DNA of 53,851 nt from Psilocybe cubensis. Lineage: Eukaryota. Numbering within the stretch: position 1 is the stretch's first letter; every line of letters starts with the position of its first letter. Shown here one piece after another: positions 28,476-53,851 of this stretch. The translations under genes were made by a program, and so were the position numbers. The notes below the pieces were generated by a model. The model saw only the letters and a program-made list of their open reading frames with translations. It was not told the origin of the DNA and ran no database searches. The stretch lies in contig CM038999.1 in NCBI GenBank assembly GCA_017499595.2, positions 4,278,001 through 4,331,851 of the forward strand, read 5' to 3'.

Positions 28476-28525
28476 GGGTTTAGGGTTTAGGGTTTAGGGT
28501 TTAGGGTTTAGGGTTTTAGGGTTTA

Positions 28526-34290: not shown

Positions 34291-35152
34291 TTAGGGTTAG
34301 GGGTTTAGGGGGGGAGCGAGCACCGAGCGAAGCGAGGTGCGAGCGACTAGTTTAAACTGGGAGTTAAAATGGAAAGAAGCCAGAGGGCTGTTGGGGGATC
34401 CCAACAACCAGCCCTTTCGTCTTTATAGACTCTTCAGTGGCTATTCTTAGAAGGAATGTTCTAGACATCCGATGACAGCGCGTGAAGTGATGCTGCGCAG
34501 CTGTCATGTATCTTACCGACTATCACAAATCTGTCAATGTTTATTGTCAAGTTAGACAGGTCTCTGATGAACAGAGTGCCACGGGTCGATGTGGCACATG
34601 GTAACCTGTCAAAAGTGGATCCAACACTTTTGTTCTTTGACATCGTGGGTTATTGACTGTGATGTGAATCACATGGATATAGATTACTCTGGTTACGTGG
34701 CTCCGAGTAACCGCGACATGGGAATATTCACATGTCTAGAGTATAAATAGCTTACCTGGGTCCTTACCTAACAATCAAACAATAGAATGATTGATTGTTG
34801 TGAATCTTAATTGGACAGTTCATGATCCGGTCCATCAAAAATGTTTCCACGGTACTAAGGAACTTTTCCCGAAGTACTAAGTAACTTTTCCCATGTACTA
34901 AATTAGATCCGGCCCTTCACAATCACATGCCGTTCGGAAGTTCACACGCCTACCTTACTTCCTACTAAGGTTAGACTTAGTTAGCTTAGGGTTGGGGTTA
35001 GGTTAGGGTTTAGGGTTTAGGGTTTAGGGTTTAGGTTTAGCTATTTAATCCAAAGTGTTGCTTGTAAGTAGATGTTTGTTACTTTATAGCAAGGGATACT
35101 TACGGTTAGGGTTTTTTTCTAATGCTTTACGCCTTACGCGCTAGTATTCTTT

Positions 35153-38100
35153 TCATCGGTTGTAAGATTTGGATATTCTGCCGAATTCTGGATGTTCCCT
35201 CTCTTGTGAGGTTGAACGTCTATGAAGTATTATCTCGTTATCACTTTCGATACTTATCTGTTCAGCAGCTTCAACTAGAGCAGAATGATAAGTTTCATTA
35301 ACGTTTTGAGTTTCGGGAACAACACCACCTTTTTCAGCGATGTTTTCATCCAGTTTACGAAAGACTGTTTTCTTCCACACATTTGCAAGGTCGAAAAGAT
35401 TAGTATTGCGCTTTCGCGATACTATCCAACGACTTCCGAGTAGTCCTATCTTCCTCAAATCCGGTACGAACTCAGTTTCTCCGTCCACGAGGATCTGTGT
35501 GAACAGCTCCGGGCGAACATCATCGAGGTCGTGAACGTAATTTGGATTTGGTTTGATAAGGGGTCTGGACGAGTCTGCACTATACAGACCTTTCTCGGCA
35601 TGTTCATACCATGCCGACCAGTACTCGGTAACAGTCTTTCCAAGTTCAGCAGCTGAAAACCAATTCCATACCTGATCAAATCTGGTTTTAAGTACAAGAA
35701 TGGATTCGTCGTGCTCTGCGACTCGTAAAGCGAATCGCTTTTCCCAACGTTCTTGTATATTCTTCTTACACCAAGACATGACTAGGTTTTCGGGATAACC
35801 GCGCATCAAATAGAGAGCGTTAAGGTCTCTAATTGCTCCGATGTAGATTTCCTTGGTACTACATAGTACGGCTAACCTGGATAACTCTCCAATGTAGACG
35901 CCACGTTTGACGTCCAAAGGATGATGTGATACCCATGGAACTCGTTCTCGGTTGTTTCCTGTCTTGACAAATGGCTTCCAATGAAGTTTTCCAGACTCCT
36001 TGAATATGAAAGCATCGAGAAATTGACATCCCGACGAGGAAACAGCCCATTCGATAACACAACCATCGAACTTTATTGTTTCTTTAATAAGATTAAGTGC
36101 AAGTGCTTCGGACTCGGCGTAAACAATTGCGAAACAATCGTCGATGTACCTTCCATAGAAGGCCACGTTTGGGTGGTCTAAGATTTTTGACTTTATTTCA
36201 AAATGGGCTCCAAAGAGGTTAGCAAGGTCCGGAGAATCCGCGACGCCCATTGCGAGGCCATTTTTTTGTCTAAAATATCTAGACCCATGTTGTGTTATCA
36301 ATTGCGTATTGCCAATCTCGATAGCACGTTTAAAGATGCCCAATTTAACCAAGTTATTCTCTAACGAATTTGGATTAATATGGGCTAATGCAGTGTTTTC
36401 TTCCGAAGCGTTGAGTAACCATTCCTCGTACATATTACAAACGATTTCGATGCACAAGTCCAACGGAATATTGGGATAGAAAGCAACTACATCCCCGGTG
36501 ACAAAATACCATTGTCGTTTGGGGTCTATACGCAATTGGCTTAATCTCGTAAAGAGATCCTTCGTTCCGTGAATGATTGAAGGAGTCGATTTAATAATCG
36601 GCTTAAGCTCTTTTGATACAAACTTGGCTGCAGGATTAAATACTACAGAGTGACACGGAATTATGGGCCTAAATCCAGTAGGTTTTTTGTGGATTTTAGG
36701 TATACCATGAAATTGAGGATACTTGAACGATGATCCGTCTTCCGGTACATTTGATAGAAAAAATCGAGACAACCCAAGTTCAAATAGAAACAGATGTTCA
36801 TCTTCGACAGTACGTGCGAGCGTTTGCATCTGAATCATTTTGCTCTTCATAACTTCTTGAGCAACTTCGAATTCTAACTCTTCGTAGTTGCGTTCATCTT
36901 CAAGAAGATTGAGCTCATTCCTTATTATCCAGTCGCGTTCAGACACCGCGAGGCCAAGATTCTTATCTGTCATCGTAATAACATAGTTGTTATCGATAAG
37001 AAACTTACGGATCTTGTCCCTTTTAGGAGAGAACGCGTGCTTTCGCATCTCCGTGAGGGCTTCTTCCGGGATACTTGCGATCGTGCGTTGCACGTACCGA
37101 CGTCCCATCGAAAGGCCAAGTTCCATATATTGCGGTAATACAGGAGGTTTTTCTTTTTTCTTAGAACTTACTCCATAATCTGGATCAAAAGGTTTATTCA
37201 TGCCTTCTTTAAACAAAAAATAGATACGCCATCTTATTCTTCGTTGAAAATCATTCCATGCTTGCATGATCAGACTTTGAGAAGGCAGTGTGAAAAACAT
37301 ATAATTTAAACCGAGAGATAAGTCGTTTGCTACATCAACCGGAACTACAACACCAGGACTACAATGTACACTAGATCTATACTGGCCAGCCAATAAGAAA
37401 GAAATTGGGGTATTGAGGTGTACAAATGAAACTGCGTCTGTTTTAGTCATGGTGAGTATATCGTCAGGAATAGAGTTGGGGAAAGCGGGTCTTACCGACG
37501 TAAAAGGTACTACATTAGACCGCGCGTTTAGGCTCTTGCCTTTCCCTTTCCCTTTGGATTGTTGTTCTTGACGGGAGCTCTCCCCTTCCCTTTCTTCTTG
37601 TTGTCGACCTTGTTGGAAGCCTTGGTTTGAGGCTTGCGTTGCGAAGGCGTCGACGACGACTTGGGTTTCGAAGGGCCAGTTTTCTTGGCCTGAGGTTGAG
37701 GAGCCTTGGACGAACTCTGGCCAGACGAAGTCTGGGTAATTAGAATAATAATTAGTATCCAAAGTTATGGGTGAAGGGTTACGAAAACCTGCCTTCTTGC
37801 CCACATATCCAAGGTTGAGCTTCTTAAGACGTGCATTCAAGCCCTTATCAATAAGGGATTGAATCGACGGACCTGGTTTGGTCGCGTCGGCCATCTCGAC
37901 ATCGGCTGTAGCCGCGGTCGACCGCTTTTTCTCAATCTTAATTGCCAAAGCGCGGTGGCGCAATTTGACAATTTGTTTGATATGAGAAAAGATAGCCGGC
38001 AGTATAGTTTGCAGCGCACTGCACTCGGCTTTCTTTTGCGGCGACGTTACCCACTCTGCTATGCGACGAACTCCCTTGTTGTCTGTAGAGAAAACGGGGA

Positions 38101-38686
38101 GCTTATAGCTGGACTTGCGGTCTTCGTAAGTTGTCTTAACGATGACCGCAGCAGCTTCATAGCAAGAAGCGAGTGCGCATTTATCCTCCCAAAAGGCCAG
38201 TTCGTCCTTTTTCGCCTGAATGGCGCCGTCGTTAATCGCCTTTTGGAAGACGTCACGAGCGGTGGAGAACGTAGTAGAGACTCGAAGAGCCTCCGCTGAC
38301 CCGGCATCCGCGAATTCCTTCGTGAGTTGGAACTCGGGAGCCTTCACCTTAAGGCGATTGGGGGTGCTGCCTGCGCTAACGGCAAGTTCAAGGCGCTCAA
38401 GGCTAGCCCTGACTGTTTCCCTCTTGTCGCACCACGATGCGAGGTTGAGGAGAAACTCCCTAAGGGCAGCGCGATAGTCAAAAAAGACGCAGTCTATTAT
38501 TTGATCAACGGAGCGGCACTCAGCTATTTTCTTGATGACCACAGTGGCCAGCTCGTCGATGAGAGCGTTTTGGCGGCCTGCTTCATCGTTGACGCCGAAG
38601 ACGGTGTTGTTGACGACGGCCTGGGTGAGTGCGTCCAGGGAGGGGGACATGGCACGAGAGAAAGCAGCAGAATATTGGGATGACAT
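35153..38686 (-). CDS. Full-length EN-less PLE reverse transcriptase (1177 aa, N-terminal ORF1-like region plus RT)
   Basis: ATG start; RT motifs GDVVAFYPNI / GLAMG / YIDD / FLD; SHHP and RGYP C-terminal motifs; no GIY-YIG. Confidence 0.95.
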   Translation of the reverse strand: MSSQYSAAFSRAMSPSLDALTQAVVNNTVFGVNDEAGRQNALIDELATVVIKKIAECRSVDQIIDCVFFDYRAALREFLLNLASWCDKRETVRASLERLELAVSAGSTPNRLKVKAPEFQLTKEFADAGSAEALRVSTTFSTARDVFQKAINDGAIQAKKDELAFWEDKCALASCYEAAAVIVKTTYEDRKSSYKLPVFSTDNKGVRRIAEWVTSPQKKAECSALQTILPAIFSHIKQIVKLRHRALAIKIEKKRSTAATADVEMADATKPGPSIQSLIDKGLNARLKKLNLGYVGKKAGFRNPSPITLDTNYYSNYPDFVWPEFVQGSSTSGQENWPFETQVVVDAFATQASNQGFQQGRQQEEREGESSRQEQQSKGKGKGKSLNARSNVVPFTSVRPAFPNSIPDDILTMTKTDAVSFVHLNTPISFLLAGQYRSSVHCSPGVVVPVDVANDLSLGLNYMFFTLPSQSLIMQAWNDFQRRIRWRIYFLFKEGMNKPFDPDYGVSSKKKEKPPVLPQYMELGLSMGRRYVQRTIASIPEEALTEMRKHAFSPKRDKIRKFLIDNNYVITMTDKNLGLAVSERDWIIRNELNLLEDERNYEELEFEVAQEVMKSKMIQMQTLARTVEDEHLFLFELGLSRFFLSNVPEDGSSFKYPQFHGIPKIHKKPTGFRPIIPCHSVVFNPAAKFVSKELKPIIKSTPSIIHGTKDLFTRLSQLRIDPKRQWYFVTGDVVAFYPNIPLDLCIEIVCNMYEEWLLNASEENTALAHINPNSLENNLVKLGIFKRAIEIGNTQLITQHGSRYFRQKNGLAMGVADSPDLANLFGAHFEIKSKILDHPNVAFYGRYIDDCFAIVYAESEALALNLIKETIKFDGCVIEWAVSSSGCQFLDAFIFKESGKLHWKPFVKTGNNRERVPWVSHHPLDVKRGVYIGELSRLAVLCSTKEIYIGAIRDLNALYLMRGYPENLVMSWCKKNIQERWEKRFALRVAEHDESILVLKTRFDQVWNWFSAAELGKTVTEYWSAWYEHAEKGLYSADSSRPLIKPNPNYVHDLDDVRPELFTQILVDGETEFVPDLRKIGLLGSRWIVSRKRNTNLFDLANVWKKTVFRKLDENIAEKGGVVPETQNVNETYHSALVEAAEQISIESDNEIILHRRSTSQEREHPEFGRISKSYNR
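37528..38686 (-). CDS. Predicted spliced ORF1 isoform (exons 38686-37793 and 37731-37528; ~365 aa with basic C-terminal tail)
   Basis: GC-AG intron at 37732-37792; stop is TAA here and TAG in the other copies. Confidence 0.6.
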
Positions 38687-38798
38687 AGTGGCTGATGGGT
38701 GATAGCAAAGTCGTTGGGTTTAGGGGGGGAGCGAGCACCGAGCGAAGCGAGGTGCGAGCGACTAGTTTAAACTGGGAGTTAAAATGGAAAGAAGCCAG

Positions 38799-38948
38799 CG
38801 GCTCGTGATTTTTTACGGGCGTGGACCAGTGCAAGCAATGGGCGCTACCGTACAGGCAAACGATCACTACATACCGCTCATGACAAAAGAGCAGGCTATT
38901 GCCTATTAAGTCCTTTACCAAGGGACACTCTCATGCCATTGGACATGG
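38799..38948 (-). ncRNA. 3'-terminal 150 nt of the group I intron, at the hammerhead insertion site; truncated and telomere-capped
   Basis: Matches 50050-50199; junction GAAGCCAG|CGGCTCGTG. Confidence 0.9.
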
Positions 38949-38967
38949 TTTTAGGGTTTAGGGTTTA

Positions 38968-41900
38968 GGGGGGGAGCGAGCACCGAGCGAAGCGAGGTGC
39001 GAGCGACTTGTTTAAACTGTGAGTTAAATGGAAAGAAGGCCAGAGGGCTGTTGATTGTTATCAGCAGCCAGCCCTTTCGTCTTTATAGACTCTTCAGTGG
39101 CTATTCTTAGAAGGAATGTTCTGGAACATCCGATGACAGCGCGTGAAGTGATGCTGCGCAGCTGTCATGTATCTTACCGACTATCACAAATCTGTCAATG
39201 TTTATTGTCAAGTTAGACAGATCTCTGATGAACAGAGTGTCACGGGTCGATGTGGCACATGGTAACCTGTCAAAAGTGGATCCAACACTTTTGTTCTTTG
39301 ACATCGTGGGTTATTGACTGTGATGTGAATCACATGGATATAAAATACTCTGGTTACGTGGCTCCGAGTAACCGTGACATGGGAATATTCTCATGTCAAG
39401 AGTATAAATAGCTTACCTGGGTCCTTACCTAACAATCAATTGATTGATTGTTGTGAATCTTAATTGGACAGTTCATGATCCGGTCCATCAAAAATGTTTC
39501 CACGGTACTAAGGAACTTTTCCCGAGGTACTAAGTAACTTTTCCCATGTACTAAATTAGATCCGGCCCTTCACAATCACATGCCTTTCGGAAGTTCACAC
39601 GCCTACCTTACTTCCTACTAAGGTTAGACTTAGTTAGCTTAGGGTTGGGGTTAGGTTAGGGCTTAGGGTTTAGGGTTTAGGGTTTAGGTTTAGGTTTAGC
39701 TATTTAATCCAATGTGTTGCTTGTAAGTAGATGTTTGTTACTTTGTAGCAAGGAATACTTACGGTTAGGGTTTTTTTCTAATGCTTTACGCCTTACGCGC
39801 TAGTATTCTTTTCATCGGTTGTAAGATTTGGATATTCTGCCGAATTCTGGATGTTCCCTCTCTTGTGAGATTGAACGTCTATGAAGTATTATCTCGTTAT
39901 CACTTTCGATACTTATCTGTTCAGCAGCTTCAACTAAAGCAGAATGATAAGTTTCATTAACGTTTTGAGTTTCGGGAACAACACCACCTTTTTCAGCGAT
40001 GTCTTCATCCAGTTTACGAAAGACTGTTTTCTTCCACACATTTGTAAGGTCGAAAAGATTAGTATTGCGTTTTCGCGATACTATCCAACGACTTCCGAGT
40101 AGTCCTATCTTCCTCAAATCCGGTACGAACTCAGTTTCTCCGTCCACGAGGATCTGTGTGAACAGCTCCGGGCGAACATCATCGAGGTCGTGAACGTAAT
40201 TTGGATCTGGTTTGATAAGGGGTCTGGACGAGTCTGCACTATACAAACCTTTCTCGGCATGTTCATACCATGCCGACCAGTACTCGGTAACAGTTTTTCC
40301 AAGTTCAGCAGCTGAAAACCAATTCCATACCTGATCAAATCTGGTTTTAAGTACAAGAATGGATTCGTCGTGCTCTGCGACTCGTAAAGCGAATCGCTTT
40401 TCCCAACGTTCTTGTATATTCTTCTTACACCAAGACATGACTAGGTTTTCGGGATAACCGCGCATCAAATAGAGAGCGTTAAGGTCTCTAATTGCTCCGA
40501 TGTAGATTTCCTTGGTACTACATAGCACGGCTAACCTGGATAACTCTCCAATGTAGACGCCACGTTTGACGTCCAAAGGATGATGTGATACCCATGGAAC
40601 TCGTTCTCGGTTGTTTCCTGTCTTGACAAATGGCTTCCAATGAAGTTTTCCAGACTCCTTGAATATGAAAGCATCGAGAAATTGACATCCCGACGAGGAA
40701 ACAGCCCATTCGATAACACAACCATCGAACTTTATTGTTTCTTTAATAAGATTAAGTGCAAGTGCTTCGGACTCGGCGTAAACAATTGCGAAACAATCGT
40801 CGATGTACCTTCCATAGAAGGCCACGTTTGGGTGGTCTAAGATTTTTGACTTTATTTCAAAATGGGCTCCAAAGAGGTTAGCAAGGTCCGGAGAATCCGC
40901 GACGCCCATTGCGAGGCCATTTTTTTGTCTAAAATATCTAGACCCATGTTGTGTTATCAATTGCGTATTGCCAATCTCGATAGCACGTTTAAAGATGCCC
41001 AATTTAACCAAGTTATTCTCTAACGAATTTGGATTAATATGGGCTAATGCAGTGTTTTCTTCCGAAGCGTTGAGTAACCATTCCTCGTACATATTACAAA
41101 CGATTTCGATGCACAAGTCCAACGGAATATTGGGATAGAAAGCAACTACATCCCCGGTGACAAAATACCATTGTCGTTTGGGGTCTATACGCAATTGGCT
41201 TAATCTCGTAAAGAGATCCTTCGTTCCGTGAATGATTGAAGGAGTCGATTTAATAATCGGCTTAAGCTCTTTTGATACAAACTTGGCTGCAGGATTAAAT
41301 ACTACAGAGTGACACGGAATTATGGGTCTAAATCCAGTAGGTTTTTTGTGGATTTTAGGTATACCATGAAATTGAGGATACTTGAACGATGATCCGTCTT
41401 CCGGTACATTCGATAGAAAGAATCGAGACAACCCAAGTTCAAATAGAAACAGATGTTCATCTTCGACGGTACGTGCAAGAGTTTGCATCTGGATCATTTT
41501 GCTCTTCATTACTTCTTGCGCAACTTCGAATTCTAACTCTTCATAGTTACGTTCATCTTCAAGAAGATTGAGCTCATTCCTTAATATCCAGTCGCGTTCA
41601 GACACCGCGAGGCCAAGATTCTTATCTGTCATCGTAATAACATAGTTGTTATCGATAAGAAACTTACGGATCTTGTCCCTTTTAGGAGAGAACGCGTGCT
41701 TTCGCATCTCCGTAAGGGCTTCTTCCGGGATACTTGCGATCGTGCGTTGCACGTACCGACGTCCCATCGAAAGGCCAAGTTCCATGTATTGCGGTAATAC
41801 TGGAGGTTTCTCTTTCTTTTTTGAGCTTACTCCGTAATCTGGATCAAAAGGTTTGTTCATGCCTTCCTTAAACAAAAAATAGATACGCCATCTTATTCTT

Positions 41901-44071
41901 CGTTGAAAATCATTCCATGCTTGCATGATCAGACTTTGAGAAGGCAGAGTAAAAAACATATAATTGAGTCCGAGTGACAAATCATTTGCTATATCTACAG
42001 GGACCACCACACCAGGACTACAGTGTACACTACTACGATACTGGCCAGCCAACAAGAATGAGATCGGCGTATGTAAGTGTACAAAAGAAACTGCGTCTGT
42101 TTTAGTCATGGTGAGTATATCGTCAGGAATAGAGTTGGGGAAGGCGGGTCTTACCGACGTAAAAGGTACTACATTAGACCGCGCGTCTAGGCTCTTGCCT
42201 TTCCCTTTCCCTTTGGATCGTTCTTGACGGGAGCTCTCCCCTTCCCTTTCTTCTTGTTGTCGACCTTGTTGGAAGCCTTGGTTTGGGGCTTCTTCTGCGA
42301 AGGCGTCGACGAGGGTTTGAATTTCGAAGGGCCAGCTTTCTTGGCCTGAGGTTGAGGAGCCTTGGACGAATTCTGGCCAGACAAAGTCTGGGTAATTAGA
42401 ATAGTAATTAGTATCCAGAATTATGGGTGAAGGGTTACGAGAACTTGCCTTCTTGCCCACAGATCCAAGGTTGAGCTTCTTGAGACGTGCATTCAAGCCC
42501 TTATCAATAAGGGATTGAATCGATGGACCTGGTTTGGTCGCATCGGCCATCTCGACATCGGCTGTTGCCGCAGTCGACCGCTTTTTCTCAATCTTGATTG
42601 CCAAAGCGCGGTGGCGCAAGTTGACAATCTGTTTGATATGAGAGAAGATGGCTGGCAAAATGGTTTGCAATGCGCTGCATTCAGCCTTCTTCTGCGGTGA
42701 CACTACCCAATCTGTTATTCGACGAACTCCCTTGTTGTCTGTAGAGAAAACGGGGAGCTTATAGCTGGATTTGCGATCATCGTAAGTTGTCTTAACGATG
42801 AGGGCAGCAGCTTCATAACAGTTATTGAGTGCGCATTTATCATCCCAAAAGGCCAGTTCGTCCTTTTTCGCCTGAATGGCGCCGTCGTTGATTGCCTTTT
42901 GGAAGACATCACGAGCGGTGGAGAACGTAGAGGAAACTCGAAGAGCTTCCGCTGACCCGGCATCCGCGAATTCCTTCGTAAGTTGGAACTCGGGAGCCTT
43001 CACCCGAAGGCGATTGGGGGTGTTGCCTGCGCTAACGGCAAGTTCAAGGCGCTCGAGGCTAGCCTTGACTGTTTCCCTCTTATCGCACCACGATGCGAGG
43101 TTGAGGAGAAACTCCCTAAGGGCAGCACGATAGTCAAAAAAGACGCAGTCTACAATCTGGTCAATGGAGCGGCACTCAGCTATTTTCTTGATGACGACAG
43201 TGGCCAACTCGTCGATGAGGGCGTTGTGGCGGCCAGCTTCGTCGTTGACGCCAAAAACTGTGTTGTTGACGACAGCCTGGGTGAGTGCGTCCAGGGTGGG
43301 GGACATGGCACGAGAGAAGGCAGCAGAGTAAGTGGAAGACATAGTAGCTGTTGGGTAATAGCAAAGTCGTTGGGTTTAGGGGGGGAGCGAGCACCGAGCG
43401 AAGCGAGGTGCGAGCGACTTGTTTAAACTGTGAGTTAAATGGAAAGAAGGCCAGAGGGCTGTTGATTGTTATCAGCAGCCAGCCCTTTCGTCTTTATAGA
43501 CTCTTCAGTGGCTATTCTTAGAAGGAATGTTCTGGAACATCCGATGACAGCGCGTGAAGTGATGCTGCGCAGCTGTCATGTATCTTACCGACTATCACAA
43601 ATCTGTCAATGTTTATTGTCAAGTTAGACAGATCTCTGATGAACAGAGTGTCACGGGTCGATGTGGCACATGGTAACCTGTCAAAAGTGGATCCAACACT
43701 TTTGTTCTTTGACATCGTGGGTTATTGACTGTGATGTGAATCACATGGATATAAAATACTCTGGTTACGTGGCTCCGAGTAACCGTGACATGGGAATATT
43801 CTCATGTCAAGAGTATAAATAGCTTACCTGGGTCCTTACCTAACAATCAATTGATTGATTGTTGTGAATCTTAATTGGACAGTTCATGATCCGGTCCATC
43901 AAAAATGTTTCCACGGTACTAAGGAACTTTTCCCGAGGTACTAAGTAACTTTTCCCATGTACTAAATTAGATCCGGCCCTTCACAATCACATGCCGTTCG
44001 GAAGTTCACACGCCTACCTTACTTCCTACTAAGGTTAGACTTAGTTAGCTTAGGGTTGGGGTTAGGTTAGG
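38968..44071 (-). mobile_element. PLE unit 8, full-length with a second upstream pLTR (43372-44071); hammerheads at 39039-39101 and 43450-43512
   Basis: Both pLTRs share private variants (GACTTGTTT, TTGATTGTTATC, GATCTCTG, TAAAATACTC, CCGTGAC, TCTCATGTCAAG). Confidence 0.95.
39812..43342 (-). CDS. Full-length EN-less PLE reverse transcriptase (1176 aa); GC-AG intron at 42388-42448
   Basis: Same motifs as 35153-38686. Confidence 0.95.
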   Translation of the reverse strand: MSSTYSAAFSRAMSPTLDALTQAVVNNTVFGVNDEAGRHNALIDELATVVIKKIAECRSIDQIVDCVFFDYRAALREFLLNLASWCDKRETVKASLERLELAVSAGNTPNRLRVKAPEFQLTKEFADAGSAEALRVSSTFSTARDVFQKAINDGAIQAKKDELAFWDDKCALNNCYEAAALIVKTTYDDRKSSYKLPVFSTDNKGVRRITDWVVSPQKKAECSALQTILPAIFSHIKQIVNLRHRALAIKIEKKRSTAATADVEMADATKPGPSIQSLIDKGLNARLKKLNLGSVGKKASSRNPSPIILDTNYYSNYPDFVWPEFVQGSSTSGQESWPFEIQTLVDAFAEEAPNQGFQQGRQQEEREGESSRQERSKGKGKGKSLDARSNVVPFTSVRPAFPNSIPDDILTMTKTDAVSFVHLHTPISFLLAGQYRSSVHCSPGVVVPVDIANDLSLGLNYMFFTLPSQSLIMQAWNDFQRRIRWRIYFLFKEGMNKPFDPDYGVSSKKKEKPPVLPQYMELGLSMGRRYVQRTIASIPEEALTEMRKHAFSPKRDKIRKFLIDNNYVITMTDKNLGLAVSERDWILRNELNLLEDERNYEELEFEVAQEVMKSKMIQMQTLARTVEDEHLFLFELGLSRFFLSNVPEDGSSFKYPQFHGIPKIHKKPTGFRPIIPCHSVVFNPAAKFVSKELKPIIKSTPSIIHGTKDLFTRLSQLRIDPKRQWYFVTGDVVAFYPNIPLDLCIEIVCNMYEEWLLNASEENTALAHINPNSLENNLVKLGIFKRAIEIGNTQLITQHGSRYFRQKNGLAMGVADSPDLANLFGAHFEIKSKILDHPNVAFYGRYIDDCFAIVYAESEALALNLIKETIKFDGCVIEWAVSSSGCQFLDAFIFKESGKLHWKPFVKTGNNRERVPWVSHHPLDVKRGVYIGELSRLAVLCSTKEIYIGAIRDLNALYLMRGYPENLVMSWCKKNIQERWEKRFALRVAEHDESILVLKTRFDQVWNWFSAAELGKTVTEYWSAWYEHAEKGLYSADSSRPLIKPDPNYVHDLDDVRPELFTQILVDGETEFVPDLRKIGLLGSRWIVSRKRNTNLFDLTNVWKKTVFRKLDEDIAEKGGVVPETQNVNETYHSALVEAAEQISIESDNEIILHRRSISQEREHPEFGRISKSYNR

Positions 44072-44097
44072 GTTTAGGGTTTAGGGTTTAGGGTTTA

Positions 44098-45365
44098 GGG
44101 GGGGAGCGAGCACCGAGCGAAGCGAGGTGCGAGCGACTAGTTTAAACTGTGAGTTTGAAATAGAAAGAAGGCCAGAGGGCTGTTGGGGGATCCCAACAAC
44201 CAGCCCTTTCGTCTTTATAGACTCTTCAGTGGCTATTCTTAGAAGGAATGTTCTAGACATCCGATGACAGCGCGTGAAGTGATGCTGCGCAGCTGTCATG
44301 TATCTTACCGACTATCACAAATCTGTCAATGTTTATTGTCAAGTTAGACAGGTCTCTGATGAACAGAGTGTCACGGGTCGATGTGGCACATGGTAACCTG
44401 TCAAAAGTGGATCCAACACTTTTGTTCTTTGACATCGTGGGTTATTGACTGTGATGTGAATCACATGGATATAGATTACTCTGGTTACGTGGCTCCGAGT
44501 AACCGCGACATGGGAATATTCACATGTCTAGAGTATAAATAGCTTACCTGGGTCCTTACCTAACAATCAAACAATAGAATGATTGATTGTTGTGAATCTT
44601 AATTGGACAGTTCATGATCCGGTCCATCAAAAATGTTTCCACGGTACTAAGGAACTTTTCCCGAAGTACTAAGTAACTTTTCCCATGTACTAAATTAGAT
44701 CCGGCCCTTCACAATCACATGCCGTTCGGAAGTTCACACGCCTACCTTACTTCCTACTAAGGTTAGACTTAGTTAGCTTAGGGTTGGGGTTAGGTTAGGG
44801 TTTAGGGTTTAGGGTTTAGGGTTTAGGTTTAGCTATTTAATCCAAAGTGTTGCTTGTAAGTAGATGTTTGTTACTTTATAGCAAGGAATACTTACGGTTA
44901 GGGTTTTTTTCTAATGCTTTACGCCTTACGCGCTAGTATTCTTTTCATCGGTTGTAAGATTTGGATATTCTGCCGAATTCTGGATGTTCCCTCTCTTGTG
45001 AGATTGAACGTCTATGAAGTATTATCTCGTTATCACTTTCGATACTTATCTGTTCAGCAGCTTCAACTAGAGCAGAATGATAAGTTTCATTAACGTTTTG
45101 AGTTTCGGGAACAACACCACCTTTTTCAGCAATGTTTTCATCCAGTTTACGAAAGACTGTTTTCTTCCACACATTTGCAAGGTCGAAAAGATTAGTATTG
45201 CGCTTTCGCGATACTATCCAACGACTTCCGAGTAGTCCTATCTTCCTCAAATCCGGTACGAACTCAGTTTCTCCGTCCACGAGGATCTGTGTGAACAGCT
45301 CCGGGCGAACATCATCGAGGTCGTGAACGTAATTTGGATCTGGTTTGATAAGGGGTCTGGACGAG
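44098..45365 (-). mobile_element. PLE unit 9, 5'-truncated (ORF tail 44945-45365); hammerhead at 44171-44233
   Basis: pLTR plus ORF tail; only GGGTTA separates it from the next unit. Confidence 0.92.
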
Positions 45366-45370
45366 GGTTA

Positions 45371-45507
45371 GGGGGGGAGCGAGCACCGAGCGAAGCGAGG
45401 TGCGAGCGACTAGTTTAAACTGTGAGTTTGAAATAGAAAGAAGGCCAGAGGGCTGTTGGGGGATCCCAACAACCAGCCCTTTCGTCTTTATAGACTCTTC
45501 AGTGGCT
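45371..45507 (-). mobile_element. PLE unit 10, 137-bp stub: terminus plus hammerhead only (45444-45506)
   Basis: Ends at TTCAGTGGCT, followed by TTTAGGG repeats. Confidence 0.9.
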
Positions 45508-46401
45508 TAGGGTTTAGGGTTTTAGGGTTTAGGGTTTAGGGTTTAGGGTTTAGGGGGGGAGCGAGCACCGAGCGAAGCGAGGTGCGAGCGACTAGTTTAA
45601 ACTGTGAGTTTGAAATAGAAAGAAGGCCAGAGGGCTGTTGGGGGATCCCAACAACCAGCCCTTTCGTCTTTATAGACTCTTCAGTGGCTATTCTTAGAAG
45701 GAATGTTCTAGACATCCGATGACAGCGCGTGAAGTGATGCTGCGCAGCTGTCATGTATCTTACCGACTATCACAAATCTGTCAATGTTTATTGTCAAGTT
45801 AGACAGGTCTCTGATGAACAGAGTGTCACGGGTCGATGTGGCACATGGTAACCTGTCAAAAGTGGATCCAACACTTTTGTTCTTTGACATCGTGGGTTAT
45901 TGACTGTGATGTGAATCACATGGATATAGATTACTCTGGTTACGTGGCTCCGAGTAACCGCGACATGGGAATATTCACATGTCTAGAGTATAAATAGCTT
46001 ACCTGGGTCCTTACCTAACAATCAAACAATAGAATGATTGATTGTTGTGAATCTTAATTGGACAGTTCATGATCCGGTCCATCAAAAATGTTTCCACGGT
46101 ACTAAGGAACTTTTCCCGAAGTACTAAGTAACTTTTCCCATGTACTAAATTAGATCCGGCCCTTCACAATCACATGCCGTTCGGAAGTTCACACGCCTAC
46201 CTTACTTCCTACTAAGGTTAGACTTAGTTAGCTTAGGGTTGGGGTTAGGTTAGGGTTTAGGGTTTAGGGTTTAGGGTTTAGGTTTAGCTATTTAATCCAA
46301 AGTGTTGCTTGTAAGTAGATGTTTGTTACTTTATAGCAAGGAATACTTACGGTTAGGGTTTTTTTTCCCAATGCTTTACGCCTTACGCGCTAGTATTCTT
46401 T

Positions 46402-49400
46402 TCATCGGTTGTAAGATTTGGATATTCTGCCGAATTCTGGATGTTCCCTCTCTTGTGAGATTGAACGTCTATGAAGTATTATCTCGTTATCACTTTCGAT
46501 ACTTATCTGTTCAGCAGCTTCAACTAGAGCAGAATGATAAGTTTCATTAACGTTTTGAGTTTCGGGAACAACACCACCTTTTTCAGCGATGTTTTCATCC
46601 AGTTTACGAAAGACTGTTTTCTTCCACACATTTGCAAGGTCGAAAAGATTAGTATTGCGCTTTCGCGATACTATCCAACGACTTCCGAGTAGTCCTATCT
46701 TCCTCAAATCCGGTACGAACTCAGTTTCTCCGTCCACGAGGATCTGTGTGAACAGCTCCGGGCGAACATCATCGAGGTCGTGAACGTAATTTGGATCTGG
46801 TTTGATAAGGGGTCTGGACGAGTCTGCACTATACAGACCTTTCTCGGCATGTTCATACCATGCCGACCAGTACTCGGTAACAGTCTTTCCAAGTTCAGCA
46901 GCTGAAAACCAATTCCATACCTGATCAAATCTGGTTTTAAGTACAAGAATGGATTCGTCGTGCTCTGCGACTCGTAAAGCGAATCGCTTTTCCCAACGTT
47001 CTTGTATATTCTTCTTACACCAAGACATGACTAGGTTTTCGGGATAACCGCGCATCAAATAGAGAGCGTTAAGGTCTCTAATTGCTCCGATGTAGATTTC
47101 CTTGGTACTACATAGCACGGCTAACCTGGATAACTCTCCAATGTAGACGCCACGTTTGACGTCCAAAGGATGATGTGATACCCATGGAACTCGTTCTCGG
47201 TTGTTTCCTGTCTTGACAAATGGCTTCCAATGAAGTTTTCCAGACTCCTTGAATATGAAAGCATCGAGAAATTGACATCCCGACGAGGAAACAGCCCATT
47301 CGATAACACAACCATCGAACTTTATTGTTTCTTTAATAAGATTAAGTGCAAGTGCTTCGGACTCGGCGTAAACAATTGCGAAACAATCGTCGATGTACCT
47401 TCCATAGAAGGCCACGTTTGGGTGGTCTAAGATTTTTGACTTTATTTCAAAATGGGCTCCAAAGAGGTTAGCAAGGTCCGGAGAATCCGCGACGCCCATT
47501 GCGAGGCCATTTTTTTGTCTAAAATATCTAGACCCATGTTGTGTTATCAATTGCGTATTGCCAATCTCGATAGCACGTTTAAAGATGCCCAATTTAACCA
47601 AGTTATTCTCTAACGAATTTGGATTAATATGGGCTAATGCAGTGTTCTCTTCCGAAGCGTTGAGTAACCATTCCTCGTACATATTACAAACGATTTCGAT
47701 GCACAAGTCCAACGGAATATTGGGATAGAAAGCAACTACATCCCCGGTGACAAAATACCATTGTCGTTTGGGGTCTATACGCAATTGGCTTAATCTCGTA
47801 AAGAGATCCTTCGTTCCGTGAATGATTGAAGGAGTCGATTTAATAATCGGCTTAAGCTCTTTTGATACAAACTTGGCTGCAGGATTAAATACTACAGAGT
47901 GACACGGAATTATGGGCCTAAATCCAGTAGGTTTCTTGTGGATTTTAGGTATACCATGAAATTGAGGATACTTGAACGATGATCCGTCTTCCGGTACATT
48001 CGATAGAAAGAATCGAGACAACCCAAGTTCAAATAGAAACAGATGTTCATCTTCGACGGTACGTGCGAGAGTTTGCATCTGAATCATTTTGCTCTTCATA
48101 ACTTCTTGCGCAACTTCGAATTCTAACTCTTCGTAGTTGCGTTCATCTTCAAGAAGATTGAGCTCATTCCTTAATATCCAGTCGCGTTCAGACACCGCGA
48201 GGCCAAGATTCTTATCTGTCATCGTAATAACATAGTTGTTATCGAAAAGAAACTTTTGGATCTTGTCTCTTTTAGGAGAGAACGCGTGCTTTCGCATCTC
48301 TTTAAGGGCTTCTTCCGGGATACTTGCGATCGTTTTAATAACGTACCGACGTCCCATTGAAAGGCCAAGTTCCATAAATTGCGGTAACATTGGAGGTTTC
48401 TCTTTCTTTTTAGAGCTTACTCCATAGTCTGGATCGAAAGGTTTATTCATGCCTTCTTTAAACAAAAAATAGATACGCCATCTTATTCTTCGTTGAAAAT
48501 CATTCCATGCTTGCATGATCAGATTTTTAGAAGGCAGTGTAAAAAACATATAATTGAGTCCAAGAGATAAATCATTTGCTACATCAACAGGGACCGAAAC
48601 ACCAGGACTACAGTGTACACTAGATCTATACTGGCCAGCCAATAAGAATGAAATCGGGGTATTGAGGTGTACAAAAGAAACTGCGTCTGTTTTAGTCATG
48701 GTGAGTATATCGTCAGGAATAGAGTTGGGGAAGGCGGGTCTCACCGACGTAAATGATGCTACAGTAGACCGCGCGTCTAGGCTCTTGCCTTTCCCTTTCC
48801 CTTTGGATCGTTGTTCTTGACGGGAGCTCTCCCCTTCCCTTTCTTCTTGTTGTCGACCTTGTTGGAAGCCTTGGTTTGAGGCTTCCTCTGCGAAGGCGTC
48901 GACGACGACTTGGGTTTCGAAGGGCCAGCTTTCCTGGCCTGAGGTTGAGGAGCCTTGGACGAATTCTGGCCAGACAAAGTCTGGGTAATTAGAGTAATAA
49001 TTAGTGTCCAGAATTATGGGTGAAGGGTTACGAAAACTTGCCTTCTTGCCCACAGATCCAAGGTTGAGCTTTTTGAGACGTGCATTCAAGCCCTTATCAA
49101 TAAGGGATTGAATCGATGGACCTGGTTTGGTCGCATCGGCCATCTCGACATCGGCTGTTGCCGCAGTCGTCCGCTTTTTCTCAATCTTAATTGCCAAGGC
49201 GCGGTGGCGCATGTTGACAATCTGTTTGATATGAGAAAAGATCGCCGGCAGTATAGTTTGCAGCGCACTGCATTCGGCTTTCTTTTGCGGAGACACTACC
49301 CACTCTGCTATACGTCGAACTCCCTTGTTGTCTGTAGAGAAAACAGGGAGCTTGTAGCTGGATTTGCGATCATCGTAAGTTGCCTTAACGATGAGGGCAG

Positions 49401-49935
49401 CAGCTTCGTAGCAAGAGTTGAGCGCGCATTTATCATCCCAAAAAGCCAGCTCGTCCTTTTTCGCCTGAACGGCGCCGTCGTTAATTGCCTTTTGGAAGGC
49501 ATCACGAGCGGAAGAGAACGTAGTGGAGACTCGAAGAGCCTCCGCTGACCCGGCATCCGCGAATTCCTTCGTAAGTTGGAACTCGGGTGCCTTCACCTTA
49601 AGGCGATTGGGCGTGTTGCCTGCGCTAACGGCAGATTCAAGGCGCTCGAGGCTAGCCTTGACTGTTTCCCTCTTGTCGCACCACGATGCGAGGTTGAGGA
49701 GAAACTCCCTGAGGGCAGCACGATAGTCAAAAAAGACGCAGTCTATGACTTGGTCAACGGAGCGGCACTCAGCTATTTTTTTGATGACCACAGTGGCCAG
49801 CTCGTCGATAAGAGCGTTATGGCGGCCTGCTTCATCGTTGACGCCGAAGACAGTGTTGTTGACGACGGCCTGGGTGAGTGCGTCCAGGGTAGGGGACATG
49901 GCACGAGAGAATGCAGCAGAGTATTGGGATGACAT
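46402..49935 (-). CDS. Full-length EN-less PLE reverse transcriptase (1177 aa); GC-AG intron at 48981-49041, in-frame GT-AG intron at 46524-46577
   Basis: Same motifs as 35153-38686. Confidence 0.95.
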   Translation of the reverse strand: MSSQYSAAFSRAMSPTLDALTQAVVNNTVFGVNDEAGRHNALIDELATVVIKKIAECRSVDQVIDCVFFDYRAALREFLLNLASWCDKRETVKASLERLESAVSAGNTPNRLKVKAPEFQLTKEFADAGSAEALRVSTTFSSARDAFQKAINDGAVQAKKDELAFWDDKCALNSCYEAAALIVKATYDDRKSSYKLPVFSTDNKGVRRIAEWVVSPQKKAECSALQTILPAIFSHIKQIVNMRHRALAIKIEKKRTTAATADVEMADATKPGPSIQSLIDKGLNARLKKLNLGSVGKKASFRNPSPIILDTNYYSNYPDFVWPEFVQGSSTSGQESWPFETQVVVDAFAEEASNQGFQQGRQQEEREGESSRQEQRSKGKGKGKSLDARSTVASFTSVRPAFPNSIPDDILTMTKTDAVSFVHLNTPISFLLAGQYRSSVHCSPGVSVPVDVANDLSLGLNYMFFTLPSKNLIMQAWNDFQRRIRWRIYFLFKEGMNKPFDPDYGVSSKKKEKPPMLPQFMELGLSMGRRYVIKTIASIPEEALKEMRKHAFSPKRDKIQKFLFDNNYVITMTDKNLGLAVSERDWILRNELNLLEDERNYEELEFEVAQEVMKSKMIQMQTLARTVEDEHLFLFELGLSRFFLSNVPEDGSSFKYPQFHGIPKIHKKPTGFRPIIPCHSVVFNPAAKFVSKELKPIIKSTPSIIHGTKDLFTRLSQLRIDPKRQWYFVTGDVVAFYPNIPLDLCIEIVCNMYEEWLLNASEENTALAHINPNSLENNLVKLGIFKRAIEIGNTQLITQHGSRYFRQKNGLAMGVADSPDLANLFGAHFEIKSKILDHPNVAFYGRYIDDCFAIVYAESEALALNLIKETIKFDGCVIEWAVSSSGCQFLDAFIFKESGKLHWKPFVKTGNNRERVPWVSHHPLDVKRGVYIGELSRLAVLCSTKEIYIGAIRDLNALYLMRGYPENLVMSWCKKNIQERWEKRFALRVAEHDESILVLKTRFDQVWNWFSAAELGKTVTEYWSAWYEHAEKGLYSADSSRPLIKPDPNYVHDLDDVRPELFTQILVDGETEFVPDLRKIGLLGSRWIVSRKRNTNLFDLANVWKKTVFRKLDENIAEKGGVVPETQNVNETYHSALVEAAEQISIESDNEIILHRRSISQEREHPEFGRISKSYNR
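48777..49935 (-). CDS. Predicted spliced ORF1 isoform (exons 49935-49042 and 48980-48777; 365 aa ending ...KKKGKGRAPVKNNDPKGKGKARA*)
   Basis: 894-nt exon 1 plus 204-nt exon 2, in frame after removal of the 61-nt GC-AG intron. Confidence 0.6.
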
Positions 49936-50044
49936 GGTAACTGATGGGTGATAGCAAAGTCGTTGGGTTTAGGGGGGGAGCGAGCACCGAGCGAAGCGAG
50001 GTGCGAGCGACTAGTTTAAACTGTGAGTTTGAAATAGAAAGAAG

Positions 50045-51036
50045 GCCAGCGGCTCGTGATTTTTTACGGGCGTGGACCAGTGCAAGCAATGGGCGCTACC
50101 GTACAGGCAAACGATCACTACATACCGCTCATGACAAAAGAGCAGGCTATTGCCTATTAAGTCCTTTACCAAGGGACACTCTCATGCCATTGGACATGGC
50201 AGGCTAATACCCTTTAAGCCCTTTACCAAGGGGCGCCACATCAGCCATTACAGCCACAGGTTCATTTCCGGCGACGAACTATTTGTCCATCCTTGTGTTA
50301 ACTCCCTTTACTAAGGGGAGGCCGGGTCACCCGCGTTTTAAGCGGTTCTGGACTTCGGGCCGTCCTCGTAAGCAGCGAGGCGCGGTTTAGATACCAGATG
50401 TGGGTTTCCCCACTCCCAAGACTATATCTTAAGATCCGAAGACCCCACTACCACCTAGTCGTTGAACGCTTCCGTCGGCGTGACCGTTACGGATTCGCTG
50501 CTGATTATCCATTCCAGCTTTCGCTGAATCTTGGGGATTGTTACCATACCCGGTCGCCACCGGTGCCTAGGCTGTTTCCAGCGGTCGGCGGTACCCACAA
50601 GCTTTAGGACGTCCCAGCAATTCGGTAGTGTCGCCGGCTGCAACCGACTTGCCAGGAGCGTATCCAGCAGAGCTGGTCCTGACAACCCCCAGTGTACTCT
50701 CACCTGATGTCCATACCCATTGAAGAACTGCGCGCCCTCGAATTACAAAGTCATCATAGCTGGATATCCCCGCAGCTAGACTAAAACGAGTTTGTATGAC
50801 CTCCGTAACCCAACATAGAAGGCGTGAGCGAGTGAAAGAAAAAGGGCCCCGCTTGCCGTGAGGCAGCCAACATGTCGATGAAACGTCCCCGAGTCAAGGG
50901 CAAGATCAGTGACGAAAGGGCTCCCGGATGAGTTGGGAAGGCACAAGCGGCAGGAGTTTGGGAGAGGACGAGTACTTGAGGGCTGTTGGGGGATCCCAAC
51001 AACCAGCCCTTTCGTCTTTATAGACTCTTCAGTGGC
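50045..51036 (-). ncRNA. Hammerhead ribozyme split by the group I intron (halves 51036-50979 and 50049-50045)
   Basis: Removing 50050-50978 restores exactly GCCAG|AGGGCTG as in intact copies. Confidence 0.88.
50050..50978 (-). ncRNA. Group I intron (IC1-like), 929 nt, no homing endonuclease, inserted in the hammerhead core
   Basis: 5' exon ends in U and intron ends in G; IGS GGGGUUGU 50682-50689; P AAUUGCUGGGA 50612-50622; Q AAUCAGCAGC 50497-50506; R GUUCAACGACUAG 50455-50467; S AAGAUAUAGUC 50420-50430; P3 CACUACC/GGUAGUG; P8 UUCG and P9 GAAA loops. Confidence 0.93.
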
Positions 51037-51702
51037 TATTCTTAGAAGGAATGTTCTAGACATCCGATGACAGCGCGTGAAGTGATGCTGCGCAGCTGTC
51101 ATGTATCTTACCGACTATCACAAATCTGTCAATGTTTATTGTCAAGTTAGACAGGTCTCTGATGAACAGAGTGTCACGGGTCGATGTGGCACATGGTAAC
51201 CTGTCAAAAGTGGATCCAACACTTTTGTTCTTTGACATCGTGGGTTATTGACTGTGATGTGAATCACATGGATATAGATTACTCTGGTTACGTGGCTCCG
51301 AGTAACCGCGACATGGGAATATTCACATGTCTAGAGTATAAATAGCTTACCTGGGTCCTTACCTAACAATCAAACAATAGAATGATTGATTGTTGTGAAT
51401 CTTAATTGGACAGTTCATGATCCGGTCCATCAAAAATGTTTCCACGGTACTAAGGAACTTTTCCCGAAGTACTAAGTAACTTTTCCCATGTACTAAATTA
51501 GATCCGGCCCTTCACAATCACATGCCGTTCGGAAGTTCACACGCCTACCTTACTTCCTACTAAGGTTAGACTTAGTTAGCTTAGGGTTGGGGTTAGGTTA
51601 GGGTTTAGGGTTTAGGGTTTAGGGTTTAGGTTTAGCTATTTAATCCAAAGTGTTGCTTGTAAGTAGATGTTTGTTACTTTATAGCAAGGAATACTTACGG
51701 TT

Positions 51703-52631
51703 CGGCTCGTGATTTTTTACGGGCGTGGACCAGTGCAAGCAATGGGCGCTACCGTACAGGCAAACGATCACTACATACCGCTCATGACAAAAGAGCAGGC
51801 TATTGCCTATTAAGTCCTTTACCAAGGGACACTCTCATGCCATTGGACATGGCAGGCTAATACCCTTTAAGCCCTTTACCAAGGGGCGCCACATCAGCCA
51901 TTACAGCCACAGGTTCATTTCCGGCGACGAACTATTTGTCCATCCTTGTGTTAACTCCCTTTACTAAGGGGAGGCCGGGTCACCCGCGTTTTAAGCGGTT
52001 CTGGACTTCGGGCCGTCCTCGTAAGCAGCGAGGCGCGGTTTAGATACCAGATGTGGGTTTCCCCACTCCCAAGACTATATCTTAAGATCCGAAGACCCCA
52101 CTACCACCTAGTCGTTGAACGCTTCCGTCGGCGTGACCGTTACGGATTCGCTGCTGATTATCCATTCCAGCTTTCGCTGAATCTTGGGGATTGTTACCAT
52201 ACCCGGTCGCCACCGGTGCCTAGGCTGTTTCCAGCGGTCGGCGGTACCCACAAGCTTTAGGACGTCCCAGCAATTCGGTAGTGTCGCCGGCTGCAACCGA
52301 CTTGCCAGGAGCGTATCCAGCAGAGCTGGTCCTGACAACCCCCAGTGTACTCTCACCTGATGTCCATACCCATTGAAGAACTGCGCGCCCTCGAATTACA
52401 AAGTCATCATAGCTGGATATCCCCGCAGCTAGACTAAAACGAGTTTGTATGACCTCCGTAACCCAACATAGAAGGCGTGAGCGAGTGAAAGAAAAAGGGC
52501 CCCGCTTGCCGTGAGGCAGCCAACATGTCGATGAAACGTCCCCGAGTCAAGGGCAAGATCAGTGACGAAAGGGCTCCCGGATGAGTTGGGAAGGCACAAG
52601 CGGCAGGAGTTTGGGAGAGGACGAGTACTTG
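51703..52631 (-). ncRNA. Second full copy of the 929-nt group I intron, inserted at AAAACCCU|AACCG in the 3' UTR
   Basis: Appears identical to 50050-50978 (offset 1653); removal restores TTACGGTT|AGGGTTTTTT with no target duplication. Confidence 0.93.
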
Positions 52632-52865
52632 AGGGTTTTTTTTCCAATGCTTTACGCCTTACGCGCTAGTATTCTTTTCATCGGTTGTAAGATTTGGATA
52701 TTCTGCCGAATTCTGGATGTTCCCTCTCTTGTGAGATTGAACGTCTATGAAGTATTATCTCGTTATCACTTTCGATACTTATCTGTTCAGCAGCTTCAAC
52801 TTTTTCAGCGATGTTTAGGGTTTAGGGTTTAGGGTTTAGGGTTTAGGGTTTAGGGTTTAGGTTTA

Positions 52866-53654: not shown

Positions 53655-53851
53655 TTTAGGGTTTAGGGTTTAGGGTTTTAGGGTTTAGGGTTTAGGGTTT
53701 AGGGTTTAGGGTTTAGGGTTTAGGGTTTAGGGTTTAGGGTTTAGGGTTTAGGGTTTAGGGTTTAGGGTTTAGGGTTTAGGGTTTAGGGTTTAGGGTTTAG
53801 GGTTTAGGGTTTAGGGTTTAGGGTTTAGGGTTTAGGGTTTAGGGTTTAGGG
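53655..53851 (+). repeat. Terminal telomeric tract (TTTAGGG)n, G-strand on +, chromosome end
   Basis: About 28 near-perfect TTTAGGG units run to the end of the window, with a few TTTTAGGG/TTTAGGGG variants. Confidence 0.97.

Follow-up and report, generated by a model that had tools for sequence, protein, structure and literature searches.

Matched ends and a group I intron in longer-than-unit copies of a telomeric Penelope-like element from Psilocybe cubensis

Three copies of an endonuclease-less (EN-) Penelope-like element at a chromosome end of Psilocybe cubensis are longer than one unit and carry matching sequence at both ends, which raises the question of whether their RNA templates were circles closed from hammerhead-cut monomers or linear transcripts. 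The DNA analysed here, referred to as the window, is a stretch of 53,851 nucleotides (nt) from contig CM038999.1 (assembly GCA_017499595.2), the plus strand of which terminates in 28 TTTAGGG repeats (53655-53851). Self-comparison resolved an array of 12 head-to-tail copies of the element, mostly 5'-truncated and coding on the minus strand, which are numbered here as units 1 to 12. All 12 begin at the identical base directly after a TTTAGGG tract, and the 5' cut-off point varies from unit to unit. The reading that we favour, with a probability of about 0.5, is that units 7, 8 and 11 would each be one complementary DNA (cDNA), made at the chromosome end by the element from linear transcripts longer than a unit. 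The evidence comes from the repeated terminal region of unit 8 and from a group I intron that is present in units 7 and 11 in their upstream copies only.

The repeated pseudo-LTR of unit 8 and its hammerhead

The features of unit 8, including its two pseudo-long terminal repeat (pLTR) copies, its hammerhead motifs and the open reading frame (ORF) for a reverse transcriptase (RT), are as follows.

38949..38967, plus strand: TTTAGGG repeats, read as the primer for unit 8
38968..39042, minus strand: R segment of the downstream copy, 75 nt, from the priming site (RNA ...GCUCCCCCCC/UAAACCC) to the hammerhead cleavage site
39038..39122, minus strand: type I hammerhead of the downstream copy, from a reading of the motif, with sub-threshold Rfam matches
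39637..39699, minus strand: telomere-like tract inside the pLTR, its repeats being reverse-complement in the RNA
39812..43375, minus strand: single 1187-residue ORF with RT motifs DVVAFYPNIP, GLAMG and YIDD, no endonuclease domain
43372..43385, minus strand: internal copy of the priming site (GGGTTTAGGGGGGG on the plus strand), seamless between the 5' region of the ORF and the second R copy
43379..44072, minus strand: upstream (second) pLTR copy, with an intact, intron-free hammerhead at ~43449-43533

Positions 38968-39688 recur at 43379-44099, at an offset of 4411 nt and with 99.72% identity over 721 nt, where other copies reach ~95-96%. Unit 8 is longer than one unit, as the initial annotation of this DNA had proposed. 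In a 15-row alignment of pLTRs, 2 of 721 positions distinguish the two copies of unit 8, and every other copy has 21-38 differences from them. One of the two differences is at 39585 (T, against G at 43996) and the other at 39662 (C, against T at 44073), the latter in the telomere-like tract at the repeat's very end. The annotation had counted at least six private variants and a single mismatch, which proved right and conservative, and the comparison of within-unit with between-unit pLTR identity that it suggested, run here within the window, found the unit 8 copies far closer to each other than to the rest. Since at least 21 variants are common to both unit 8 pLTRs and occur in no other copy, both ends trace to one segment after the lineage split, and the two pLTRs are not independently evolving repeats. 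Separate inheritance of each pLTR from the source would let them drift apart, and the sharing seen in unit 8 means that some re-copying step exists.

The 75-nt segment between the priming and hammerhead sites (39042..38968 in unit 8) has no differences between both ends in units 7, 8 and 11. This identity had been noted before for a segment given as ~80 nt and as private to each of the three units; of this description the identity stands, the length is corrected to 75 nt, and privacy holds for unit 8 only, since the haplotype of unit 7 is also found in unit 1 and that of unit 11 in units 5, 6, 9 and 10. With each upstream segment drawn randomly from the 12 downstream copies, the chance of three matches is (2/12)(1/12)(5/12) = 0.006. 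The pLTR copies of unit 11 have 0/802 differences within the unit, and likewise none to unit 9 and one to unit 6.

The hammerhead that bounds the R segment is real at the motif level, and its self-cleavage is predicted. Its parts are helix I (GCCA/UGGC), the core CUGAAGA, helix II (GUCU-AUAA-AGAC), GAAA and a long helix III (GGGCUG...CAGCCC), the last being a feature reported for the hammerheads of fungal Penelope-like elements (Cervera and De la Pena 2014, PMC4209133). Residue U16.1 is at 39044 and C17 at 39043, which places the predicted cut between 39043 and 39042. The Rfam hammerhead matches, at 23 and 19.5 bits, fall short of their gathering scores (56.3 and 48.5), and the scan of the window returned no hammerhead match at the gathering threshold. 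With one motif per 4411-nt unit, cutting would be predicted to release unit-length monomers. In the window, 75 nt separate the cut site from a telomere-complementary tract (RNA CCCCCCCUAAACCC) on its 3' side, so the priming site of a hammerhead-cut monomer would come to lie close to the monomer's 5' end. The 12 downstream copies and the upstream copy of unit 8 (13/13) all read across the cut site with no base gained or lost. The role of the hammerhead in these elements has been called ‘a mystery’ (PMC7761336).

Relatives of the RT are carried by 80 environmental contigs (loci with L-numbers). A three-helix hammerhead parse found 41 sense instances in 36 of the 80 loci and no antisense instance. 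Helix II, which lies outside the parse filter, is paired in 24 of 25 distinct versions with six pair combinations, and CCCTAA follows the cut site at 41-75 nt in 29 of 37 distinct hammerhead instances. The tracts of the relatives read either CCCTAA or CCCTAAA.

A group I intron in the upstream copies of units 7 and 11

Past the hammerhead site, both of these units read on into a group I intron, which occupies a site in the hammerhead (site A) and, in unit 11, a second site near the ORF (site B).

34308..38948, minus strand: unit 7, a full unit followed by a second 75-nt R copy (38723-38798) and 150 nt from the intron's 3' end (38799-38948), with telomere repeats after them
35153..38719: intact 1188-residue frame of unit 7
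38799-38948, minus strand: 3' fragment of the intron, last 150 nt, at site A of unit 7
45553..52812, minus strand: unit 11, a full unit followed by R (49972-50049), the whole intron (50050-50978), the pLTR body (725 nt, 50979-51702), a second identical intron (51703-52631) and the ORF 3' end (170 nt, 52632-52801)
46402..49968: intact 1188-residue frame of unit 11
50050..50978, minus strand: site A copy of the group I intron, placed in the upstream hammerhead between U16.1 and C17, exon ends ...ACAGCCCU / CUGGCC...
51703..52631, minus strand: site B copy of the group I intron, 45 nt past the ORF stop, exon ends ...AAAACCCU / AACCGU...

The intron is an exact 929-nt insert, with bounds taken from comparison with intron-free copies. 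Its two complete copies are identical (929/929), and the identical stretch extends to 933 nt (50050-50982 equals 51703-52635). Both copies gave a full-length match to Rfam model RF00028 (50398-50694 and 52051-52347) with 70.9 bits and an E value of 4.7e-16, against a gathering score of 50. Both sites read ...CCCU/C...G/, with U before the intron, C as its first base and G as its last. In the minimum free energy fold, a long-range P1 is formed by ACAGCCCU and the intron start pairing with GAGUAC..GGGGGUUGU, with a U-G wobble at the splice site. The guide sequence lies about 270-280 nt into the intron from the 5' splice site and pairs 8/8 at site A and 7/8 at site B, a match that is supportive and not unique, as 69 of 4396 positions of the unit RNA pair at 7/8 or better with wobbles, nine of them at 8/8. 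By its core, its P1 and terminal G, and its precise absence from sister copies, the insert is a group I intron, and self-splicing is predicted. Its core strings AAUUGC.GGGA, GUAUGGUAA, GUUCA.AGACUA and AAGAUAUAGUC presumably resemble those of the Tetrahymena IC1 intron.

Sites A and B have no common sequence on the 3' side, and the two longest sense frames within the intron gave no homing-endonuclease match. Sites that are alike only at the 5' exon, together with the absence of an endonuclease-like frame, fit guide recognition at the RNA level, that is, reverse splicing, and not a homing endonuclease. Site A is located one base 5' of the hammerhead cut site, where the intron would remove the 3' strand of helix I and block the upstream hammerhead; the intron bases next to the insertion (AAGU...) cannot pair with the GCCA of helix I.

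The distribution of the intron is asymmetric. Site A is intron-free in 12/12 downstream copies and in the upstream copy of unit 8, and site B is intron-free in 9/9 downstream copies. At site A the intron is therefore present in 2/3 upstream and 0/12 downstream copies (Fisher p ~0.03). Unit 7 has the intron in its upstream copy only, and unit 11, which is colinear over ~7.26 kb, has introns at both A and B in the upstream copy and at neither in the downstream copy.

Related inserts occur among the 80 contigs. Two group I introns in L078 score above the Rfam threshold (76.5 and 72.8 bits), and the 79 loci besides L078 gave no group I match at the gathering threshold, with weaker, sub-threshold matches in L031 (34.2 bits) and L033 (31.6 bits). 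All four inserts are homologous to the window intron (nhmmer E values of 8.5e-49 to 0.0026), and the other 77 loci gave no nhmmer match to it.

L078, 7231-8076, sense: intron 1, at 13 nt 3' from the cut site of the hammerhead; the downstream pLTR copy lacks it
L078, ~8300-8770, sense: second intron
L031, 445-1546, sense: insert ~5 nt 3' of the cut site, relative to intron-free L023
L033, 751-1826, sense: insert ~50 nt 3' of the cut site, relative to intron-free L023

Introns or intron-like inserts are thus found just 3' of the hammerhead in 3/80 relatives, all in sense orientation and at differing exact positions. We found no convincing guide sequence in L078 intron 1. When the five cores (the window intron and the four related inserts) are aligned, compensatory change is seen in 34 of 69 predicted pairs. 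Over 593 nt, L078 intron 1 matches the window intron at 65% identity, and their host RTs are ~31% identical in protein.

A perfect 12-nt complement joins the 5' region of the intron (AGCCCUUUCGUC, 50911-50922, intron nt 57-68) and the hammerhead core (GACGAAAGGGCU, ~51007-51018), ~25 nt 5' of site A. Such a complement was reached in 0/300 shuffles and is not present in L078, L031 or L033, and we draw no conclusion from it.

Templates for longer-than-unit copies

A monomeric circle that is copied twice must give the same state in both passes. Unit 8 shows this, with 2/721 differences and the intron in neither copy, and units 7 and 11 do not; their asymmetry points to linear longer-than-unit templates or to two different RNAs. 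Of the latter, a switch exactly at the hammerhead site is unlikely because it needs an RNA that ends in intron plus C, and hence cleavage by a hammerhead in which the partner strand of helix I has been replaced. The colinearity of unit 11, with its two pLTRs identical, means that the linear multi-unit template already carried matched pLTRs, so matched ends can be inherited without a circle in that generation. An intron that disables the upstream hammerhead would leave the transcript untrimmed there, which offers a simple reason for the length of units 7 and 11. The initial annotation had explained the matched ends by a circular monomer that the RT travels round more than once, entering the upstream-only intron of units 7 and 11 as a caveat. 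That caveat has become the main result for those two units, which the asymmetry takes away from the circle, and what is kept of the explanation is the single template segment behind both ends of unit 8. One possibility for the asymmetry itself is that a spliced, correctly folded 3' pLTR is required for priming.

In the reading with linear templates, the G-rich telomere end would pair with the short CCCUAAACCC tract of the element RNA. As this tract is 75 nt 3' of the hammerhead cleavage site, reverse transcription would begin inside an uncleaved 3' pLTR and run toward the 5' end of the RNA. The templates would be linear transcripts of more than one unit, derived from sources that already have an upstream pLTR, i.e. 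partial tandems in the normal layout of Penelope-like elements, and pLTR-forming partial tandems are described as the norm for the class (PMC8557442). The cDNA would exceed a unit when the upstream hammerhead is uncut. In units 7 and 11 this hammerhead would be made uncuttable by the intron between U16.1 and C17, and in unit 8 it would have been intact and uncut, or religated. The two pLTRs of a lineage would occasionally be re-derived from one another in an earlier generation, by cDNA transfer between the R/priming-site repeats or by a circle, after which matched pLTRs would be inherited through linear transcripts. Internal initiation by the RT and multi-copy mRNA templates form the model proposed for another Penelope-like element (PMC11167929). 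The supposed transfer works like the R-mediated minus-strand transfer of retroviruses, where the RNA is terminally redundant, the cDNA moves from the 5' R to the 3' R and the ends are made alike. The likeness is one of operation, as the element differs from retroviruses in having no tRNA primer, no RNase H domain that we could see and no LTR formation, and the transfer here is inferred. On the side of the linear reading, too, 32 of the 80 contigs carry a direct repeat of at least 60 nt with copies more than 1.5 kb apart, and in 20 of 80 the opening 40 nt reappear near the contig end, at a period of 4.07-6.6 kb. Closing the unit cycle without a seam is thereby a trait of the family. These assemblies do not separate tandem DNA from RNA that is circular or multimeric. 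For repeats that exceed the assembler overlap, pLTR-pair identity is 98.6% over 493 nt in L022 and 95.8% over 1126 nt in L021, the latter against 89-90% to neighbouring fragments.

Several observations weigh against linear templates as the whole account. Linear inheritance alone cannot give the variants, at least 21, that the unit 8 ends share, and a re-copying step is needed, for which the candidate routes are a ligated circle, cDNA transfer between R/priming-site repeats, an end-to-end jump of the RT and DNA fusion of siblings. None of the 12 units terminates exactly at the hammerhead site, and the window thus gives no direct sign of 5' ends being trimmed by the ribozyme. Activity as monomers in vitro has been reported for the hammerheads of fungal Penelope-like elements (PMC4209133), so that one has to account for a 3' hammerhead left uncut in every template, as a religated circle would do. 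Finally, the pLTR pairs of the relatives are not always matched within a contig (L078 82.9%, L010 89.6%, L021 95.8%).

Taken by itself, unit 8 agrees equally well with a circle, with a linear transcript left uncleaved from a source flanked by pLTRs and with strand transfer between the R/priming-site repeats; a DNA-level fusion of neighbouring siblings would fit it too. The circle would be formed by ligation of hammerhead-cut 4.4-kb monomers, with the RT, primed at the telomere-complementary tract, going round more than once. The seamless 4411-nt period of unit 8 and its 2/721 differences within, against 21-38 between units, are what this predicts, and the precise junction in 13/13 copies agrees with it. 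The position of the priming tract 3' of the cut site (75 nt here, 41-75 nt in 29/37 instances among relatives) means further that a cut monomer can be fully copied only if its ends are rejoined. A circular template has been proposed in print for Penelope-like elements (PMC4209133), and circular RNAs of retrozymes have been shown (PMC4918200). We nevertheless consider the circle unlikely as the template of all three units, since two passes would give an equal intron state and in unit 7, as in unit 11 with its two sites, the intron is upstream only, matched ends are also found on the linear template of unit 11, and the DNA of unit 8 reads the same for a circle and for an uncut tandem transcript. 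In an end-to-end jump, the RT would leave a monomer RNA at its hammerhead-cut 5' end and land on the cut 3' end of a sibling, or of that same RNA, without a circle being closed covalently, and the topology of the product, being that of the circle, would suit unit 8. The full-length units are lineage mosaics along their length, with variability highest in the ORF's 5' half. The element family thus undergoes recombination or template switching, and jumps of some kind would be in keeping with it. Yet end-to-end jumps of R2-type enzymes usually leave extra bases, and the exact cleavage-site junction in 13/13 copies speaks against frequent jumps; nor could such a jump place an intron asymmetry at the exact site, short of cleavage by a disrupted hammerhead. 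We regard it as very unlikely.

Events at the DNA level are quite unlikely in our judgement. Two sibling additions could have been fused through their R/priming-site repeats with loss of the telomere repeats between them, or the pLTRs could have been made alike by gene conversion. Neighbours are indeed often siblings: units 3 and 4 differ at 0/799 pLTR positions and at 1/2517 overall, and units 9 and 11 at 0/802 pLTR positions and 3/1269 overall. The mosaic units, too, point to recombination. Against this, fusion requires as its intermediate a full unit that ends at the cut 5' end beside telomere repeats, and no such junction is found among the 12 units of the window or in the 80 relatives, which gave nothing informative on it. 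An assembly artefact, in which near-identical repeats were collapsed or mis-joined to give an extra pLTR or the intron-pLTR-intron block, draws on the stretches of 100% identity in the array (the 933-nt repeat and the pLTRs of units 9 and 11). We find it scarcely credible, because both copies of unit 8 have its lineage-specific variants, which are found in no other place in the window, the intron junctions follow group I rules (U before, G at the end) at two different sites, and the same kinds of structure recur in independent environmental contigs.

The array, the element and known systems

The units of the array start at the following positions, from self-comparison.

Units 1 to 6, minus-strand coding: 1488, 5690, 25358, 28526, 31072, 32571
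Units 7 to 12: 34308 (unit 7), 38968 (unit 8), 44098, 45371, 45553 (unit 11), 52866

The near-identical neighbours span 25358-31042 and 44098-50049. The lineages of units 7 and 11 are distinct, with 157 differences in 4495 positions. Short TTTAGGG tracts are scattered through the window besides the terminal array, whose repeat (53655-53851) is the plant-type unit TTTAGGG and not TTAGGG. The upstream copy of unit 8 breaks off within the telomere-like tract of its own pLTR, and unit 9, which would be primed there, starts four repeats on (44031-44101); such an internal tract may offer the next addition a place to land. Unit 2, which is cut at unit coordinate ~650, is separated from the telomere tract with which unit 3 starts by ~19 kb of mostly unique, non-retroelement sequence (6346-25315), which may be host DNA trapped between telomeric elements.

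The best protein matches of the 1187-residue ORF are 99% identical proteins of Psilocybe cubensis, one of them named ‘Reverse transcriptase domain-containing protein’, for which PF00078 is precomputed. Pfam scans of the ORF and of one of the 99% identical proteins returned no family, and sequence searches of the PDB with the RT protein and with a 22-sequence profile gave nothing usable. The RT assignment accordingly rests on the readable motifs A, B and C and on the precomputed PF00078 and name of the 99% identical proteins. No further sense-strand frame of the unit has a protein match.

We class the element as EN- Penelope-like of the Coprina type, a label that is taken from the host, the architecture and the literature description. 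It has an RT ORF without a GIY-YIG endonuclease, 5'-truncated head-to-tail copies joined at their 3' end to telomere repeats, and a hammerhead beside reverse-complement telomere repeats. The layout of the array is the one published for Athena and Coprina elements, in which a telomere tract precedes the antisense 3' end and the 5' truncation varies, and in those elements the G-rich overhang is described as pairing with the short reverse-complement telomere tract beside the hammerhead, upon which the enzyme of the element extends the chromosome end (PMC8557442, PMC6431247). The window element shares with Coprina its telomeric site, its arrays with short telomere-repeat spacers, its one EN-less RT ORF and the hammerhead adjoining a telomere-complementary tract at the 3' end (PMC8557442, PMC6431247). 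Compared with the Coprina elements as described there, the element itself shows no essential difference, and what is added here is the haplotype evidence for re-copied ends and the group I introns of the pLTR.

A circular-RNA template for Penelope-like elements was proposed by Cervera and De la Pena 2014 (PMC4209133) from features that the window shares, namely longer-than-unit copies with a hammerhead in each repeat. That proposal comes without sequence evidence of the present kind, and of the units here one fits it and two do not. Retrozymes likewise have hammerhead-bounded units, for which rolling-circle copying by a borrowed Penelope-like RT has been proposed (PMC4918200, PMC7761336, bioRxiv 10.64898/2026.07.22.740005). 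As described in these sources, retrozymes (plant LTR, animal non-LTR) are 0.2-1 kb long, non-coding and non-autonomous, and their circles have been seen, whereas the window element is 4.4 kb long, coding and autonomous, with a circle that is hypothetical. The element as such, the arrays that it forms at the telomere, the hammerhead and the copies of more than one unit length are known Penelope-like features, and the idea of a circle is already published. The haplotype argument is a useful, modest addition, and the intron is the unexpected part.

According to a review, nuclear group I introns are ‘exclusively found within functional rRNA genes’, and evidence for a complete reverse-splicing route, including reverse transcription and integration, ‘is still lacking’ (PMC3679873). 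The window intron is like those of ribosomal DNA (rDNA), e.g. Tetrahymena L1925 of the IC1 class (PMC3679873), in its conserved core, in the U before the 5' splice site that pairs with a guide G and in its terminal G; it is also precisely absent from sister copies, and no homing endonuclease ORF was found in it. It differs from them in its location in the pLTR and 3' untranslated region of a telomeric retrotransposon, in the ~270 nt that separate the splice site from the guide, and in occupying two unrelated sites of one RNA. In the literature searched, at the level of titles and abstracts, no group I intron in a Penelope-like element is reported.

The Penelope-like transposition cycle is described as ‘still undefined’ (PMC8557442), and how these elements make tandem pseudo-LTR copies is a question that the young, intact and lineage-marked units of the window address. 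The two ends of a copy are re-derived from one template, and at least some templates would be linear and longer than a unit. The intron result matters more than the matched ends, as the intron is found at two sites, with 100% identity, and has relatives in other element lineages. We tentatively propose, at a little under even odds, that an IC1-like group I intron lineage lives in fungal telomere-attaching Penelope-like elements, entering their RNA by reverse splicing, becoming fixed by the RT of the element and acting as a switch for the hammerhead. For reverse splicing speaks that the two window sites are alike only in the guide match of the 5' exon, ACAGCCCU and AAAACCCU. The RNA of a retroelement is routinely reverse-transcribed and is a place where this route could be caught in the act. 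If the proposal is true, these would be the first nuclear group I introns outside rDNA, and the window would hold a natural record of the whole path from reverse splicing through reverse transcription to integration. As a switch, the unspliced intron would block self-cleavage and so yield longer-than-unit templates with an upstream pLTR, and splicing would restore the ribozyme; a ribozyme nested in a ribozyme would thus be a testable regulatory arrangement in the life cycle of these elements.

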